From the NCBI GenBank assembly GCA_022820545.1, contig JAJEFG010000107.1:29579-93578 (forward strand): DNA of 64,000 nucleotides. The letters run 5' to 3'. The position numbers were made by a program, and so were the translations under genes. The notes under the pieces were generated by a model that worked only from the letters and a program-made list of their open reading frames with translations, had not been told where the DNA came from and made no database searches. Source of the DNA: Acidobacteriota bacterium. Lineage in GTDB: Bacteria; Acidobacteriota; Vicinamibacteria; Marinacidobacterales; Marinacidobacteraceae. Numbering within the stretch: the stretch's first letter is position 1; the number at the start of each line of letters is the position of its first letter. This document shows, one piece after another, positions 1,880 to 30,597 of this stretch.

Positions 1880-2155
1880 GGGCGCCTCCCGGTGAGAGGC
1901 TATCGTGTCCGGTCGGACAGAGGTCACCGGCGCGATCCGAACCGGCCGCTTCGGGGACGGGACCGTGGGACATGGCGCGCCGCCAACCGGCGGTTGGGGG
2001 GGCAAGGGGGATCAGTGGCCTTCCCCTTGCTTGCCCTCTTCCCGGACGGTGGAGTTTTCCGGGGCATGCGCGGGCGCACGGTGGCTTCGCAGCCATCCTG
2101 CGCCGAGGCGATCCTTGCCGAGACTCCGCGGAGCCTTCGTTGGAGGTGTTCGGTG

Positions 2156-4777
2156 ATGAGCAGGTTCTCGAGCTGCCATTTGGTCTGTCTGCTGGGCGCC
2201 TCAGTCCTGGCCGGGGGTTGCGGTCAGGATTCGGTGGCGCCGTCGTCCACGTTCCCGCGTCGCGCACTTCCGGGAGATCCGGTACGGGATTGGCTCGACG
2301 CCAACGGCAAGCCGTTCGAGGGTCCCCACCTCTCGCTTCCCCACCAGGAACTGGAGTTCATGAGGGAACTGGTGGGCGACGCACGCATCGTCTCCCTGGG
2401 TGAGAACACCCACGGGGCTCGCGACTTCTTCGAGATGAAGGCCCGCGTGCTGCGCTTCCTGGTGGAGGAGATGGGGTTCAACACCTTCGGCATCGAAGCC
2501 ACCTGGCCGGAGGCTCGGCTTCTGGACCGGTACGTTCGGACCGGCGAGGGTGACGCAAGGGAGCTGCTCCAGGGTCTCTTCTTCTGGACCTGGCGGACCG
2601 AGTCGGTGCTCGAGATGATCGAGTGGATGCGCGCCCACAACGAGGCGGGCGGCGACGTCGGGTTTCACGGCTTCGACATGCAGTTCCCCGGCCTCGCGCT
2701 CGAGAACGTGCGCGCCTATTTCCGCGAGGTGGATCCCGATCGGGTCGGGATCGTCAACGAACACATCCAGTGCCTCGACGCCTTCGCGAACGACGAAAGG
2801 GGACGGTTCCCGACTCGGCGTTACGCCAGCCAGCCCCTCGCCTATCAACGAGACTGCGCTGCTTCACTGCAGGAGGTCCGCAACCTGCTGTTCGTGAGGC
2901 GGGCGCAGTACGAGGCCGCTTCGGGCACGGACGCGTTCGAGGTCGCCCTCCAGAGCTTGCGCGTCGCCGTTCAATACCACCTCGATGAGACAGGCGAACA
3001 GGATCGCGACGAATCCATGGCGGAAAACGTCGGCTGGATCAGCGACCGGATCGGGCCGGACGGGCGAATGGTCCTCTGGGCCCACAACTACCACGTCTCC
3101 ACGCAGGAGGGGGCCCAGGGTCATTTCATGCGGCAGCGCTTCGGGGACGACATGGTGGTGGTCGGTTTCAGCCACGCCCGCGGCCACTTCACCGCGGTTA
3201 CCCGGACTGGGTCGCAGTACCGGGGACTGGCCGAGCACGAACTCGACGAGCCCGTCGAGGGCTCCTTCGAGAGCTATCTGGAGAGGGCCTCCGCGCCCCG
3301 GTTCGTGCTCGATCTCCGGGACCTGGGCACGATCTCGGCGGGAAACTCATGGCTCACGGAGACGCGGCCGTTCCGCGGCATCGGCGCCGTCTACGACCCC
3401 GACGCACCCGGTGACTATTGGCATGAGGCCCCGCTCCGGGAGTGGTACGACGTGATCATCCACTTCGAGTCCACGCGCGCGACCGCGGTGCTGCCGACGG
3501 TGACGCCGAGACCCGAACCAGTTCCCGACCCGACGGCCGCCGAGGAGTGGATCGAAACCAGTGCCGTGCCGTTCCACGGCACTCACTTCTCCCTCCCGCA
3601 CCGCGATCTTGCCGGCGTCGGGGAGGTGGTTGGCGAGGCCCGCATCGTCGCCCTCGGCGAGAACACCTACGGCACCCGCGACTTCCACCAGATGAAGGCC
3701 CGCCTCTTTCGCTATCTCGTGGAAGAGAAGGGTTTCGACACGTTCGCGCTGGAGGGCGCCTGGCCGGAGACCCGCCTCCTGAACCGCTACCTGCAAACCG
3801 GCGAGGGAGACCCCCACAGGCTGCTGTCCGGAATGCACTTCTGGGTGTGGAGATCCGAGTCCATGCTCGAACTCATCAAGTGGATGCGGGCCTACAACGA
3901 AGACGGAGGCCACCTGGAATTCCATGGATTCGACATGCAGTACCCGGGACTGGCGCTCAGGAACGTCCGCGAGTACCTGCGTTCGGTGGATCCCGAACGC
4001 GCGGCGTCGGTGGAGGCCGATCTCAACTGTCTCGAGACCTTTGCCAACGACCACACCGGACGGTTCCCCAGTTCACGATACGCCGATCAGACCGAGATCT
4101 ACCGGTCCGCCTGCGGGGATTCGCTCGAGGCGGTGCGGGAAGACCTGGTCGCGAACCGGAACGCATACGAAGCGGCATCCGATGAGGATGCCTTCGCGGT
4201 AGCGCTCCAAAGCCTGCGGGTGGCGGTTCAGTACCACCTGATGTTTGCCCGCGAGCAGTCGCGCTCGGAGTCCATGGCCGAGAACATCGCCTGGATCAAC
4301 GGGCGCGTCGGGCCGGGCGGTGGGCTGGTCCTTTGGGCCCACAACTCCCATTTCGCGCGAAATCCCGCCGCCACGGGGTTTCACCTGCACGAGATGTTCG
4401 GGGACGATCTGCTCAGCGTCGCCTTCGGCCACGAAAGCGGGCAGTTCACGGCTGTCACTCGCCGGGGATCGGAGTACGTCGGCCAAATGGTGAACGAGTT
4501 GAGCCCTCCAATTCCCCACTCGTTCGAGTACTACCTGGCGGGCGCCTCCGCGTCCCGTCTGGTACTCGACCTGCGCACCTGGGACGCGAGTTCGCCGGGC
4601 AGTGCCTGGCTCGGCGACCTCCGTCCGTTCCGCAACATCGGTTGCTGCTACGACCCTGACACCCCGGAGAGTTACTGGCGCTCGATTCCCTTGGCACGTT
4701 GGTACGACGTGCTCATCTTCTTCAAGACGACCCGGCCTGCCGTGGTGCTTCCCGCACTCACCCCGGATCCCTGGTAA
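2156..4777 (+). CDS. Lipoprotein with two tandem erythromycin-esterase-family (Ere/PF05139-like) domains
   Basis: This is the in-frame internal start of ORF 1118..4777. MSRFSSCHLVCLLGASVLAGGCGQDS has a lipobox (LAGGC). There are two ~400-aa repeats, each carrying an LGENTHGxxxF(F/H) motif, MKAR..R(F/Y)LVEE.GF.TF, WAHN.H and VAFGHxxG. The 5' 1 kb of the ORF is antisense to the DUF1028 gene. Confidence 0.7.
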   Translation: MSRFSSCHLVCLLGASVLAGGCGQDSVAPSSTFPRRALPGDPVRDWLDANGKPFEGPHLSLPHQELEFMRELVGDARIVSLGENTHGARDFFEMKARVLRFLVEEMGFNTFGIEATWPEARLLDRYVRTGEGDARELLQGLFFWTWRTESVLEMIEWMRAHNEAGGDVGFHGFDMQFPGLALENVRAYFREVDPDRVGIVNEHIQCLDAFANDERGRFPTRRYASQPLAYQRDCAASLQEVRNLLFVRRAQYEAASGTDAFEVALQSLRVAVQYHLDETGEQDRDESMAENVGWISDRIGPDGRMVLWAHNYHVSTQEGAQGHFMRQRFGDDMVVVGFSHARGHFTAVTRTGSQYRGLAEHELDEPVEGSFESYLERASAPRFVLDLRDLGTISAGNSWLTETRPFRGIGAVYDPDAPGDYWHEAPLREWYDVIIHFESTRATAVLPTVTPRPEPVPDPTAAEEWIETSAVPFHGTHFSLPHRDLAGVGEVVGEARIVALGENTYGTRDFHQMKARLFRYLVEEKGFDTFALEGAWPETRLLNRYLQTGEGDPHRLLSGMHFWVWRSESMLELIKWMRAYNEDGGHLEFHGFDMQYPGLALRNVREYLRSVDPERAASVEADLNCLETFANDHTGRFPSSRYADQTEIYRSACGDSLEAVREDLVANRNAYEAASDEDAFAVALQSLRVAVQYHLMFAREQSRSESMAENIAWINGRVGPGGGLVLWAHNSHFARNPAATGFHLHEMFGDDLLSVAFGHESGQFTAVTRRGSEYVGQMVNELSPPIPHSFEYYLAGASASRLVLDLRTWDASSPGSAWLGDLRPFRNIGCCYDPDTPESYWRSIPLARWYDVLIFFKTTRPAVVLPALTPDPW

Positions 4778-15648: not shown

Positions 15649-21530
<5,882 letters not shown>

Positions 21531-21691
21531 AGCTGGTTCATTGCTGTGGTCGCCCCGACACCGTCTAGCATCGAAAGATGGTGGCTTGGCAGTCTCGCTG
21601 TTGGAACGGGCTCACCACTCTCGTTGCCCGCATAGTGAACTGCCGGCCATTCGTGTGTGTCACCGCGTACTTTGCCAAAGGAGCACAATCC

Positions 21692-22177
21692 TTGACCGAT
21701 TCGACCGAAAGACATTCTGGACGTTCCAGCTATCGGGAACTACTGATTGAGAAGCGATTCCTCAGCGATCTGCTCGCCGAGTTGTGGCCCGAAGAGGTTG
21801 AAGTGCTCCGGCCCGACGTGGACATTGCGGGATACGACCTCGTGCTAGAGGCCCGCGGGTCTATGCGTCATCTCCAACTCAAGTCGGCGCTCCGATCCGT
21901 ACGCAAAAACAATCGCAGCGTGAGGGGAAGACTCGCCCAAAAGCCTGCGGGCTGTGTCCTCTGTATCGTGATAGACGACAAGCTGGAGCCGAAGAGATAC
22001 CGATGGTTTGGCAACGGTCCGGGAGAGAGGCTGAACTTGCGCGGGTTCGACAAGGCGTGCGATCCCAAGACCAAAAAGGAGAGGCTGGACACCTACACCG
22101 TGCCTCCTGAGGAATTTGTCGAACTGGAAGGGATCAAGGACGTGATCGAGAAACTGTTTGGACCGAAAACGGCGTAG
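21692..22177 (+). CDS. Small PD-(D/E)xK-type (Hjc/YraN-like) putative nuclease, low-GC horizontally acquired gene
   Basis: This is an in-frame TTG start within ORF 21578..22177, with AAGGAG 8 nt upstream. A putative catalytic core E..(16 aa)..DIAGYD..(9 aa)..LQLK is present. The gene is ~55% GC and K-rich in a ~70% GC background. Confidence 0.45.
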   Translation: MTDSTERHSGRSSYRELLIEKRFLSDLLAELWPEEVEVLRPDVDIAGYDLVLEARGSMRHLQLKSALRSVRKNNRSVRGRLAQKPAGCVLCIVIDDKLEPKRYRWFGNGPGERLNLRGFDKACDPKTKKERLDTYTVPPEEFVELEGIKDVIEKLFGPKTA

Positions 22178-22287
22178 CCTTGCCTGCACCCGAGGGGCGA
22201 CAAAGGGCCTTTCAGAACCACGAAGAGCTACTTGGCGTTCAACGCTCGCCGGTCGGATCCATCGGGCGCCTGGTTGGCAGCTCGCAG

Positions 22288-23412
22288 CTACTCCGTCTTC
22301 CAAAAGGCGATGCCCGAGGCCTGCTTGCCGACTTCGACGACCGCTTCGCGCTCCAGGGATTCCAGGTTGTAGAGCTCGACCCGCCCGGGTTCGCCGCCGA
22401 TCTCCTCGACGGTGACGATGGCGAAGCGGCTGTCCGGGGTGATCACCACCCCGTGGGTGATGCGCGCCGAGGCCGGCACCGAGGCCCGCTCGGTCCCGCT
22501 CTCGAGATTCCAGAAGCCGACCGAGTCATTCGTCTTTTCGGTGACGACCAGATGCCTGCCGTCCGCCGAGACGTCGATGTTGTAGGGCCCCCGGCGGGTG
22601 TGGAACCGGCGCCGGGGCTCCCACGCTTCGAGATCCACTTCGAGGACCTGGTTCAGCCCCTGCAGCGCGACGTAGGCGTGCCTGCCGTCGGGGGCGGGCT
22701 GGACCCAGGTCGGGCTCGCGGCGGGCCCGCCGCCCATCGCGTGTCCCGCGTGGGGATCGCCGTCCACGACCGCCGTCGTGGTCTCGTTGTCGCCGGTGAG
22801 GCGCATCCGCCGGCTGGGCTGGAAGGTCATGGTGTCGATCTCGAACAGCTCGGCGCTCATCATGGCCACCGAGTAGGCGAGCATCCCGTCGGCGCTCAGC
22901 CGCGAGCCGTGCGGCATGACGCCCTGCTCGATCTGGGCGATCTCGGTCATCGAAACGGTGTCGATCACCGAGACGTTCGAGGGGACGTGGTCCCCGTGCA
23001 GGTTGAAGTTCACGACGAACAGGAACCCGGTCGCCGGGCTGATGTCCATGGTGGCGGGGAAGAGGCCGGCGGTGGTGTCCCCCACTTCGAGGTCGGTACC
23101 GGTCTCGAACTTGTGGACGGTGCCGTAGGGCATGCCGTGGGCGATCGAGACGTACCAGTGCCGGCCGTCCGGAGACACCTGGATGCCGTGCGGCCCCTCG
23201 ATCTCGTTCGGGAGGATCCCCACGGGAATCCGCCGGAGCAGCTCGCCGCCGTCCGGCCCGAAGCGGACGAGGTCCACGGTGTCGTCGGACTCGGCCGCGA
23301 CGTATACGAAGTAGCTCTGTTCGGCGCTCGTCTGGGCGCCGGCTGCGGCGGCCGCGCAGAGGGCTGCGCCAAGGGCGGCGGCGAGCCGGCGGGGCGGGGC
23401 GTCAGTTCTCAT
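22288..23412 (-). CDS. YVTN-family beta-propeller repeat protein, secreted
   Basis: ORF 22288..23445(-) trimmed to MRTDAPPRRLAAALGAALCAAAAAGAQ (signal peptide). It carries repeated ..DG..LYV.N..S..VSVID motifs. Confidence 0.65.
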   Translation of the reverse strand: MRTDAPPRRLAAALGAALCAAAAAGAQTSAEQSYFVYVAAESDDTVDLVRFGPDGGELLRRIPVGILPNEIEGPHGIQVSPDGRHWYVSIAHGMPYGTVHKFETGTDLEVGDTTAGLFPATMDISPATGFLFVVNFNLHGDHVPSNVSVIDTVSMTEIAQIEQGVMPHGSRLSADGMLAYSVAMMSAELFEIDTMTFQPSRRMRLTGDNETTTAVVDGDPHAGHAMGGGPAASPTWVQPAPDGRHAYVALQGLNQVLEVDLEAWEPRRRFHTRRGPYNIDVSADGRHLVVTEKTNDSVGFWNLESGTERASVPASARITHGVVITPDSRFAIVTVEEIGGEPGRVELYNLESLEREAVVEVGKQASGIAFWKTE

Positions 23413-23550: not shown

Positions 23551-23925
23551 TCATGGCTCCCTTACCCGGCTTCGCAGCCACGGCTCCAGGTTCTCGAAAC
23601 GGAAGGTTCCGGTTTCGTAGAGCCGGGAAACGAAGCCGAAGACATCATCGGAATCGGCTTCCAGATGTGCACCGTTGATTGCCAGGAACGTGTGCATCAC
23701 GGCGAACGCCGTCCGTTTGTTTCCGTCCAGGAACGGATGATTCTGCGAGAGGCTCTCCCACAGCGCCGCCGCCTCCTCGATGAGGTCGGCGTAGTAGCCG
23801 GTCCGGGGCCGGTAGAGGGCCGCTTCGAGGAGACCGGGATCCCGGATCCCGTGTGTTCCCCCGTACTCCTCGATCTGATCGAAGTGAATGGCGAGGACTT
23901 CCGCAAACGTCGGACAGTCGCTCAC
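23551..23925 (-). CDS. doc: Doc (death-on-curing) Fic-family toxin
   Basis: This is the C-terminal 124 aa of ORF 23551..24345(-). The Fic motif is HPFLDGNKRTAFAVMHTFL. The GTG start overlaps the antitoxin stop (GTGA). Confidence 0.75.
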   Translation of the reverse strand: MSDCPTFAEVLAIHFDQIEEYGGTHGIRDPGLLEAALYRPRTGYYADLIEEAAALWESLSQNHPFLDGNKRTAFAVMHTFLAINGAHLEADSDDVFGFVSRLYETGTFRFENLEPWLRSRVREP

Positions 23926-24182
23926 TTCGCGAGCTTCTTGTAGAGCTCGCCGTACTTGTCGCGGCTCTCCAGATAGGCCTCCATGACGTGGGGACGGGGC
24001 CGGCCCTGGTTGCGCTTGTCGATCAGATCTCGAAGCGCCTCGTCCACCAGTGCCTGGATCTGGCGGCCTTCCTGCGCCGCGATCTTGCGCACCTTGGCCA
24101 AGGTCTCCGGTTCGACCTGGGTGGCGAATTTCTGGCGAGACGTGGGCAAGGGTCGCTTCTCCTGGTCGGGCATACGTGTCAT
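23922..24182 (-). CDS. RHH/CopG-type antitoxin partnered with Doc
   Basis: 86-aa ORF. The RHH-like segment is FATQVEPETLAKVRKIAAQEGRQIQALVDEALRDLI. It lies immediately upstream of Doc and overlaps it. Confidence 0.65.
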   Translation of the reverse strand: MTRMPDQEKRPLPTSRQKFATQVEPETLAKVRKIAAQEGRQIQALVDEALRDLIDKRNQGRPRPHVMEAYLESRDKYGELYKKLAK

Positions 24183-29944: not shown

Positions 29945-30196
29945 ATGAGTATGAAGCGGCTGCAAGTGGTCATGTCAGACGAAGAACTCGACGGTTTTCA
30001 CCAGACTGCTCGCGCCGAGGGACTGCGCCTTTCCGAATGGGTTCGCCGCACGCTCCGCGCTGCCCGTCAGGCGGCGTCGGCCGAACGGATTGAGCGAAAG
30101 CTGCAGGCGATCGAAGCTGCGGCGAACTGGAAAGCCCCGACTGCGGACCCGGAACAGATGCTTGCCGAGATCGAGGCCGGACGCCTTGCCGATTGA
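29945..30196 (+). CDS. vapB: VapB-type RHH antitoxin
   Basis: 83 aa. The RHH segment is KRLQVVMSDEELDGFHQTARAEGLRLSEWVRRTLRAA. It overlaps vapC (TTGA). Confidence 0.7.
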   Translation: MSMKRLQVVMSDEELDGFHQTARAEGLRLSEWVRRTLRAARQAASAERIERKLQAIEAAANWKAPTADPEQMLAEIEAGRLAD

Positions 30197-30597
30197 CCTT
30201 CGTTGACTCGAACGTCCCGATGTACCTCGTCGGGAAAGAACATCCCCGCCGGGAAGATGCCGTGCGCGCCCTGGCGGAGCTTGTGCGGCAGACCGAACCG
30301 CTGGTGAGCAGCGCCGAGGTTGTACAGGAAATCCTGCACCGGTATCACGCGATCGGTCGCCGTGAATTCGTCCAACCGGCGATCCGGTTGCTGTTGGAAC
30401 TGACCGAGGGGGACATCTTTCCGGCGACCCTGAACGACACGCTGCGAGCTGGCGAACTGCTCGTCTCGTTCCCGGAAATCTCCTCCCGCGACGCGGTGCA
30501 TCTCGCCGTCATGGAGAGTCGCGGCGTTTCCCGGATCCTCTCGTTCGATCGCGGTTTTGACGTCGCTACCGGGATCGAGCGGATTCCCGACTTCTGA
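30193..30597 (+). CDS. vapC: VapC PIN-domain toxin
   Basis: TTG start. FVDSNVPMY carries the first Asp of the PIN domain; EV, HLAVME and LSFDRGFD carry the remaining acidic residues. Confidence 0.8.
   Translation: MTFVDSNVPMYLVGKEHPRREDAVRALAELVRQTEPLVSSAEVVQEILHRYHAIGRREFVQPAIRLLLELTEGDIFPATLNDTLRAGELLVSFPEISSRDAVHLAVMESRGVSRILSFDRGFDVATGIERIPDF

Follow-up and report, generated by a model that had tools for sequence, protein, structure and literature searches.

Among the described systems closest to the gene considered here, the DREN nuclease of SPARDA is active only once assembled, and enzymes of the BisI family cleave only multiply methylated target sites. BisI and NhoI are small stand-alone modification-dependent PD-QXK enzymes that lack a sensor domain, and the Q-for-E variant of the catalytic motif has been described for small modification-dependent enzymes as a 'PD-QxK, Mrr-like' site (PMC11347163). 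The homing endonuclease I-Ssp6803I, which is the only characterised relative of the present protein detectable by sequence and the only solved structure reachable by sequence, is a tetramer recognising a long (~23 bp) target, and its closest structural relative is Hjc (PMC3384342).

Gene, reading frame and composition

The locus lies in a 64-kb stretch of Acidobacteriota DNA, which is referred to below as the window. The features of the nuclease gene and its surroundings are as follows, with L numbers denoting the loci used in comparison.

19521..21530, minus strand: MGH1-like glycoside hydrolase gene, one boundary of the slot, followed by a GH2 gene (Pfam PF22422, E 8.5e-48; orthologs and synteny)
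21429..22282, no strand: cassette of 854 bp (blastn alignment with the empty allele L092 ends at 21428 and restarts at 22283; junction alignments)
21429..21530, minus strand: replaced 5' end of the glycosidase gene (signal-peptide region), brought in with the cassette (identity switch along the alignment)
21531..21691, no strand: divergent intergenic region of 161 bp between the glycosidase start and the nuclease start (conserved with L011; not alignable by blastn with L100)
21678..21683, plus strand: Shine-Dalgarno sequence AAGGAG, 8 nt 5' of the TTG (sequence, ortholog alignment and comparison with neighbouring genes)
21692..22177, plus strand: nuclease coding sequence, 161 aa, stand-alone PD-(D/E)xK ('PD-QxK') protein, TTG start at 21692
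22178..22287, no strand: spacer of 110 bp between the nuclease stop and the propeller stop (common to L100, the other nuclease-only allele)
22288..23412, minus strand: YNCE/lactonase-type beta-propeller gene, the other boundary of the slot (Pfam; gene maps of L092-L095)

The initial annotation had described a 161-aa reading frame with an AAGGAG-8nt-TTG start, and this was confirmed by the sequence and is backed by comparison with orthologs. The TTG codon aligns with the GTG, ATG and GTG starts of three orthologous loci (L011, L010 and L006), each of which has its own GGAG-type Shine-Dalgarno sequence, and the longer ATG-initiated reading frame from 21578 was therefore rejected as the gene. The Shine-Dalgarno sequence had also been singled out as unlike those of most neighbouring genes, which holds in part: it is the strongest of the region but is not unique, as a GGAG-type core is found in 7 of 16 neighbouring genes as well. 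The divergent intergenic region presumably carries the promoters of both the glycosidase and the nuclease genes; no sigma-70-type promoter was predicted at the nuclease locus, though the prediction may not cover the promoter type of the host.

The low-GC island and lysine-rich composition reported initially were both reproduced. GC content is 0.56-0.59 over approximately 21500-22300 against approximately 0.70 in the flanks, and among all 400-nt windows of the 64 kb the deepest trough is the nuclease region, at 0.570 (mean 0.705, sd 0.036, approximately 3.7 sd below). The nuclease gene itself has a GC content of 0.566 and a GC3 of 0.685, compared with a GC3 of 0.91-0.93 in the adjacent genes, and lysine makes up 8.1% of its product compared with 0.4-3% in most neighbours. 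There was no match to a group I or group II intron or to any other Rfam family at E≤1 over 20800-23000, nor were there paralogs of the nuclease within the window.

Exchange of the cassette among related genomes

Related genomes were located via orthologs of the flanking glycosidase, the nearest named of which are labelled 'Acidobacteria bacterium' (93%, partial) and Gemmatimonadota/Ca. Palauibacter (70-71%). The neighbours named at the outset, a YNCE/lactonase-type propeller and an RHH-Fic/Doc pair, were both recovered by Pfam, with the RHH-Fic/Doc pair lying beyond the propeller and the GH2 gene beyond the glycosidase. All four of the closest relatives (L092-L095; 86-92% protein identity) have an empty site without the nuclease, in which the propeller, glycosidase and GH2 genes directly follow one another in the same orientation, with the propeller 11-14 bp upstream of the glycosidase. 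Relative to the empty allele L092, the cassette replaces 99 bp, comprising the 11-14 bp intergenic gap and approximately 90 nt from the 5' end of the glycosidase gene. At the propeller end, the sequence remains homologous to the empty alleles up to 5 nt past the propeller stop codon, where the homology breaks off. A search for terminal repeats or a target-site duplication around the cassette returned just short, chance-level matches.

The same slot is occupied by a family member in six distinct genomes, namely the window (identical in L007-L009), L100, L011, L010, L101 and L006. The window and L100 share one contiguous blastn alignment over 21713-23402, at 87.8% identity. Conservation in synteny with normal codon usage, which the initial annotation had named as the observation that would speak against it, was not found, because GC3 is 0.69-0.71 in the nuclease of every slot allele; empty alleles are, moreover, present in closer relatives. 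Some close relatives have the cassette and others lack it cleanly, which indicates that the nuclease gene is a horizontally exchanged accessory.

The flank of the cassette is a mosaic. In DNA identity over the GH2 gene, the propeller gene and the 1.8 kb at the 3' end of the glycosidase gene, the window stands at 90-92% to three empty alleles, which are of the same clade, and at 84-86% to the occupied clade of L011, L010 and L006. Over the first ~250 alignment columns of the glycosidase, the window is instead 76% identical to the occupied allele L011 and 46-53% identical to the empty alleles. Past column 350, its identity is 90-92% with the empty alleles, as against 85% with clade B (the occupied alleles that carry the additional gene described below). 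The mosaic tract reaches ~250 nt into the glycosidase gene, and the signal peptide encoded in the window differs from that of the empty alleles. The flip of the identity pattern beside the cassette means that the adjacent flank was exchanged along with it.

Synonymous divergence follows the same trend. Between L010 and L006, the nuclease has a dS of 1.25 and the flank (MGH1) one of 0.14; the corresponding values are 1.73 and 0.53 between the window and L006, and 0.96 and 0.53 between the window and L011. The dS of the nuclease is up to nine times that of the flank, an excess that is perhaps partly inflated, though not ninefold, by the extreme codon bias of the flanks (GC3 ~0.9), which the nuclease does not share, and so the alleles were swapped horizontally. 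With a dS of 0.92, the L004 copy, whose genomic surroundings are different, is nearer to the L010 allele than is the allele of L006, a near relative of L010 (dS 1.25). The nuclease alleles are nonetheless under purifying selection, with dN/dS (Nei-Gojobori) of 0.15-0.32, or about 0.2, and of 0.23 between the window and L100, both of which are nuclease-only. The horizontal acquisition suggested initially is shown directly by the empty sites in the four closest relatives, the mosaic flank and the dS excess over the flanks, and related genomes gain, lose and exchange the cassette through recombination in its conserved flanks.

No element other than the nuclease is shared by every occupied slot allele, and the cassette in the window consists of this one gene, with no methyltransferase. 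In four of the six occupied alleles (clade B), a gene of 400-449 aa lies between the nuclease and the propeller, its product having only a weak M78/ImmA-like C-terminus without HExxH. A metagenome scan identified 20 other loci with this gene, of which none carried the nuclease and 17 carried a companion of ~145 aa directly upstream; the four clade-B alleles have this companion too, and the window lacks it. The 400-449-aa gene was rejected as a functional partner of the nuclease on these grounds, and with 20 nuclease-free loci and a companion of its own it therefore constitutes an independent two-gene module in the same hotspot. A type II toxin-antitoxin module was likewise rejected, there being no antitoxin adjacent to the nuclease in its single-gene cassette, and the RHH-Doc pair lying beyond the propeller and varying independently. 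The view that the nuclease has no obligate partner is supported both by the independence of the clade-B genes and by the heterogeneity of neighbours across the family.

Protein family, predicted fold and genomic context

The sole Pfam match of the protein is PDDEXK_5 (PF11645, the I-Ssp6803I family), which falls below threshold (21.5 against 26.1 bits, E 2.5e-4) and covers residues 28-74 only. NCBIfam and PHROGs returned no match to the 161-aa protein, and in PADLOC (PADLOC-DB 2.0) no defence model exceeded noise, the single match being HEase (E 0.033, 12.3 bits). A word-indexed protein search returned 21 relatives, all of them unannotated, and an exhaustive profile search returned at least 1,425 representative clusters at E≤1e-3 from many phyla, 301 of them at E≤1e-30. 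The family is large and uncurated, with no Pfam, NCBIfam or PADLOC model covering it, and so escapes routine annotation.

Across 150 diverse representatives, D44, G47, D49, R59 and Q62 are invariant, and S12, E16, E20, Y48, H60 and K64 are at least 90% conserved. The structure predicted for the 161-aa protein is a single domain without extension, in which E16 and E20 lie in a helix at 4-31, D49 stands just ahead of a strand at 50-54, and Q62 and K64 lie in a strand at 57-67. Family profiles place D44, Y48-D49 and Q62-L-K64 on the GD, YD and QVK of I-Ssp6803I (2OST), with the catalytic motif in register; residue roles in I-Ssp6803I were taken from the profile alignment and from PMC3384342. Both the fold and the motif of the PD-(D/E)xK superfamily, i.e. 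a helix-1 acid, a strand-2 Asp and a strand-3 (D/E/Q)xK, were found. The active site is proposed, from conservation and the structural model, to comprise E16/E20 in helix 1, D44, D49 at the start of strand 2, and H60, Q62 and K64 in strand 3. The E...D...QxK pattern picked out by the initial annotation proved to be the conserved one, with D, Q and K invariant or nearly so in the family, and its assignment to the restriction-endonuclease fold was borne out, since the model puts the conserved residues at canonical catalytic positions and these align with the YD...QVK of I-Ssp6803I. In the close subfamily, the loops at 68-74 and 108-129 and the C-terminal third hold most of the divergence, and the catalytic core is conserved. 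Taken together, sequence and model make it very probable that the 161-aa protein is an active nuclease.

A scan of species-representative genomes yielded 210 family loci from many phyla, including Alpha-, Beta- and Gammaproteobacteria, Acidobacteriota, Planctomycetota, Chloroflexota, Nitrospirota and Saccharimonadales, and only four family loci were found in 2.9 M viral contigs (IMG/VR). The GC content of the family gene is below that of its flanks by a mean of 0.06, with the difference under -0.03 in 47 of 80 loci. The gene stands alone across 80 loci besides that of the window, beside varied neighbours. The reading frames next to it on either side (149, from ~75 non-redundant loci) fall into 141 Pfam families, many of them housekeeping, among which only Phage_integrase is mildly recurrent. 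No methylase recurs beside family members, the 149 nearest neighbours including one MTase_II match and two to mad2 (MADS). Approximately one tenth of the nearest neighbours match PADLOC models (MADS, PglW, Shedu SduA, SspH, Type I S subunit, and PDC-S02, PDC-S11 and PDC-S14), and an R-M-like pair adjoins the nuclease in L004.

Clustering of the neighbours revealed three recurrent companions: a tyrosine recombinase encoded on the same strand, 12-30 bp downstream of the nuclease, in ~9 loci (~10%), a C-protein-like XRE HTH gene divergently upstream in five loci, and NucS/DUF91-like PD-(D/E)xK proteins in ~8 loci. Between Paraburkholderia and Acidobacteriaceae, DNA homology is limited to exactly the 1.45-kb nuclease-integrase pair and the identities of both genes co-vary, indicating that one subfamily travels in a minimal two-gene module; only one of 11 integrase-linked loci is beside a tRNA. 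C-terminal extensions are present in 42 of the 150 representatives (~28%), the commonest being a helical domain of ~120 aa in 13 of the 150, for which a Rosetta-stone test found no free-standing counterpart, whether in the window or in any of the loci. Single cases of fusion involve an ADP-ribosylglycohydrolase, REase-ARP, trypsin and DUF6508.

Candidate functions and relation to known systems

The window gene is most likely a defence or selfish gene. By analogy with one-domain Type IV enzymes such as BisI and NhoI, its product is tentatively read as a self-sparing defence nuclease, with a likelihood put a little below even. Under such a reading, the protein would be a stand-alone metal-dependent DNA endonuclease of the PD-(D/E)xK fold with a predicted PD-QxK site (E16/E20, D49 and Q62-x-K64, together with D44 and H60), acting alone as an innate-immunity nuclease and probably forming a dimer or tetramer like its structural relatives. 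Because the nuclease has no methylase, antitoxin or sensor, the host chromosome would be spared through the choice of substrate, which might be offered only by foreign DNA in the form of a modification pattern, a particular structure or a particular sequence.

A defence role is consistent with an accessory, low-GC family that is rare in viruses and keeps divergent alleles at one locus, with divergence in peripheral loops round a conserved core, with the PADLOC defence proteins that make up approximately one in ten nearest neighbours, with the R-M-like pair next to the L004 copy, and with the C-protein-like XRE HTH genes of five loci, the integrase association and the conflict-type fusions. The dN/dS of 0.15-0.32, which includes nuclease-only alleles, and the lack of a recurrent methylase suggest that the protein is functional and acts alone, for which BisI and NhoI provide the precedent (PMC11347163). 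Against this, PADLOC gives no match beyond noise (HEase, E 0.033), the protein is not a relative of BisI by sequence, most neighbours across the family are ordinary housekeeping genes, and the sole characterised relative detectable by sequence is a homing endonuclease. The exact-slot pattern with a replaced flank is, further, also predicted by intronless homing, and the main rival is a free-standing homing endonuclease that would cut the unoccupied propeller/glycosidase junction, with repair copying in the cassette and its flank, and with the altered sequence of the co-copied flank making the occupied allele immune. This rival, which is considered rather unlikely though far from negligible, draws on I-Ssp6803I/PDDEXK_5 as the closest characterised relative and the HEase model as the only PADLOC match, on the filling of the same slot in two flank-defined clades with empty alleles among the nearest relatives of the window, on the replacement of 99 bp including the junction with co-transfer of a flank tract of ~250 nt, and on the placement of a short solitary reading frame between unrelated housekeeping genes across the family; the presence/absence pattern and the mosaic flank are compatible with it. 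However, there is no intron or intein context and no Rfam match, the family is nearly absent from viruses and abundant in the chromosomes of many phyla, ~28% of representatives have extra C-terminal domains, some of conflict-system type, and all slot copies are intact and under purifying selection with no decay. Simple homing into empty sites also does not explain alleles of 61% amino acid identity in the same slot of near-identical backgrounds. Intronless homing is, to our knowledge, well documented in phages and hardly at all in cellular genomes.

The remaining candidates are less probable. A latent effector or toxin nuclease of a multi-component system, with its sensor or antidote encoded elsewhere and working like the DREN nuclease of SPARDA, is favoured by SPARDA DREN-APAZ chains being the top Foldseek PDB matches (E 3e-4), by the domain forming the N-terminal module of longer proteins with variable C-termini in 42 of 150 representatives, and by the toxin-antitoxin modules nearby in the window. 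It is nonetheless improbable, as no recurrent neighbour emerges from 80 loci, the genes on either side in the window encode a glycosidase and a propeller, the DREN Foldseek scores are no better than those of Hjc or I-Ssp6803I, and purifying selection is kept in nuclease-only alleles. An accessory nuclease serving the mobility or maintenance of integrative elements, of which the window copy would be a stranded remnant, fits the co-oriented tyrosine recombinase that follows the nuclease by 12-30 bp in ~9 loci and the co-varying 1.45-kb nuclease and integrase homology between Paraburkholderia and Acidobacteriaceae, but is held to be slightly more improbable still: neither the window cassette and its vicinity nor any of the other five occupied alleles of the slot contains an integrase, ~90% of loci lack one, and the slot alleles are under purifying selection. 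A housekeeping structure-specific nuclease, i.e. a Holliday-junction resolvase or repair enzyme of the Hjc/RecU type, is very improbable given that the gene is absent from the four closest relatives and so dispensable in sister genomes, and that the distribution is patchy, the GC content atypical and the alleles horizontally swapped, with no Pfam Hjc or RecU match.

There is some chance, judged well short of likely, that the window gene is the founding example of a phylum-spanning one-gene nuclease family (at least 1,400 clusters), constituting either a new single-protein immunity system against foreign DNA or a group of free-standing PD-(D/E)xK homing endonucleases. If its members are active alone, a compact, widespread family of 161-aa proteins would join the catalogue of one-gene defence or selfish elements; if the homing reading is the true one, the slot would record conversion of cassette plus flank between bacterial chromosomes. 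In either case the slot amounts to a natural experiment, with ten related genomes bearing empty, nuclease-only and nuclease-plus-module alleles, and illustrates how small cassettes are exchanged by flank recombination and are able to split an operon and rewrite the signal peptide of a neighbour. A small nuclease that is possibly sequence-, structure- or modification-specific may also have value as a tool. Current concepts are unchanged, as the fold, the chemistry and the lifestyle are all of sorts already known.

Comparison with the described systems places the protein beside, and outside, each of them. It shares with I-Ssp6803I and PF11645 a motif in register and scores under the gathering threshold; I-Ssp6803I is intron-encoded and its group resides in cyanobacterial tRNA introns (PMC3384342), whereas the window gene is intergenic, without an Rfam match, and belongs to a chromosomal family of many phyla. 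Unlike I-Ssp6803I, the window protein also has S12, H60, R59, C88 and W105 as extra invariant residues and a C-terminal beta-rich extension. Hjc, along with RecU and SSV D212, has 10-13% sequence identity to the window protein with no match at the sequence level, and its third motif has E where the window protein has Q; orthology to Hjc or RecU was rejected, given the lack of a Pfam match to either, the absence of the gene from the four closest relatives and a dS far above that of the flanks. SPARDA DREN (DUF4365) provides the top Foldseek PDB matches (E 3e-4 to 1e-3), with low TM scores of 0.33-0.38, and both it and the window protein are N-terminal PD-(D/E)xK modules of similar size; a SPARDA component was rejected, as the protein is not fused to APAZ, no Argonaute is encoded beside it in the window, and Pfam returned no DUF4365 match at E≤1. 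Type II restriction-modification was rejected as well, with no adjacent methyltransferase and with a glycosidase and a propeller as the window neighbours. Like the BisI family, the window protein is a single-domain PD-QxK protein with neither methylase nor sensor domain, but membership of that family was rejected, as hhalign of the family profile against NhoI and Eco15I_Ntd gave a probability of 0.2%; the D-to-Q spacing is 13 residues in the window protein compared with 10 in Eco15I, the latter as read from the mutant names D69A and Q79A in the supplement. The family is best filed as a new, uncurated one of a known sort, solitary accessory restriction-fold nucleases, rather than as a new kind of system.

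Insertions in and around the nuclease slot

The second-deepest GC trough of the window (0.608) coincides with a toxin-antitoxin pair beside the propeller gene, the individual genes of which have a GC content of 0.62-0.63.

Window 23551-24182, (-): RHH-Fic/Doc toxin-antitoxin pair
L100:5049-7149: reverse-transcriptase gene (Pfam RVT_1) and 414-aa ORF

This pair is a presence/absence polymorphism, being found in the window, in L094 (a close relative with an empty nuclease slot) and in L010 (a relative with nuclease and extra genes), and missing from the empty-slot relatives L092, L093 and L095, in which the propeller gene adjoins an S9 peptidase gene. Its presence varies independently of that of the nuclease cassette. 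In L100, the other nuclease-only relative, which lies on a low-coverage (2x) contig with apparent frameshifts, the RVT_1 gene and 414-aa ORF are located just past the propeller gene, i.e. at the position of the RHH-Fic/Doc pair in the window, and therefore provide further evidence that the neighbourhood of the nuclease slot is an insertion hotspot.

In four relatives, the slot holds, besides the nuclease, an uncharacterised two-gene module that was also found in 20 metagenome loci, where the nuclease is absent.

L006:6579-8338, L101:2369-4167, L011:8542-10178, L010:8541-10340; also L102-L121: two-gene module

The first gene encodes a ~145-aa protein (motif YVGSAEHKxYPS...FPKYVWGW) and carries a frameshift in L010 and L006; the second encodes a ~440-aa protein with a C-terminus resembling M78/ImmA peptidases, without HExxH. 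No Pfam family was found for either protein.

The glycosidase gene and other features of the window

Window 21280-21530, (-): glycosidase 5' end, compared with L092:5001-5090
Window 15649-19524, (-): GH2 beta-galactosidase-like gene
Window 29945-30597, (+): low-GC (0.63) small-gene pair with PIN-domain toxin
Window ~2100-4777, (+): large ORF with low-GC patch at 3701-4100

In the empty alleles, the propeller, glycosidase and GH2 genes form a string with 11-14-bp spacing, which the nuclease cassette interrupts. The N-terminal signal or lipoprotein-like peptide of the glycosidase also differs, the cassette version in the window replacing the VPGKLTVFLVALALGAGC... of the empty alleles. Expression of the glycosidase in occupied genomes must accordingly depend on a new promoter. 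Between the domains of the GH2 beta-galactosidase-like protein lies a long low-complexity insert of strongly acidic character.

The PIN-toxin gene pair, the second low-GC small-gene pair, lies ~8 kb from the nuclease cassette, and a FitA-like RHH and PIN pair is located at another position in the same neighbourhood in related genomes (L092:1030-1742, L093:681-1393). The large ORF, which resembles erythromycin-esterase-like proteins, comprises a ~430-aa unit twice in tandem, with the repeated motif GENT(H/Y)G(A/T)RDF...MKAR...FLVEE(M/K)GF(N/D)TF; the second copy includes the patch that ranks third-lowest in GC within the window.

Neighbours and fusions of the nuclease family

L018:6001-7463, L024:6001-7463, L076:6001-7457, L032:6001-7478, L085:6001-7454, L031:3752-5202, L056, L066, L088: nuclease and tyrosine recombinase unit
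P0042, P0066, P0073, P0090, P0096, P0104, P0119, P0131, P0143, P0147, P0161, P0164, P0167: fused C-terminal ~120-155 aa
L004:6695-7486, (+): 263-aa protein with classic PD...ExK motif (SYPDFSLV...EGYEIKG)
L004:7494-10001, (-): 835-aa HTH-fused DNA methyltransferase (PADLOC MTase_II, E 2e-28)
L032:5570-5800, L035:5657-5881, L040:5674-5889, L041:5650-5868, L046:5658-5879, all (-): small XRE-type HTH genes

Across phyla, a family nuclease and, 12-30 bp downstream of it, a ~318-aa tyrosine recombinase form a discrete ~1.45-kb unit, possibly a minimal mobile module. DNA homology between Paraburkholderia and Acidobacteriaceae is limited to these two genes, whose identities co-vary. A further, incomplete integrase copy is present in L018 at 2360-2623.

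In 13 of the 150 family representatives, the nuclease domain is joined to an apparently helical C-terminal domain (motif ...HLIDGY...LW..LF.EHRR.R...) that matched no Pfam family and does not occur on its own in any retrieved locus. In the Acidobacteria MAG locus L004, the 263-aa and 835-aa genes adjoin the nuclease homolog and look like a restriction-modification pair. In five loci, a divergent XRE-type HTH gene (~73 aa, motif RTYISGIERGERNPTV) lies directly upstream of the nuclease, its product resembling the controller (C) proteins of restriction-modification systems.
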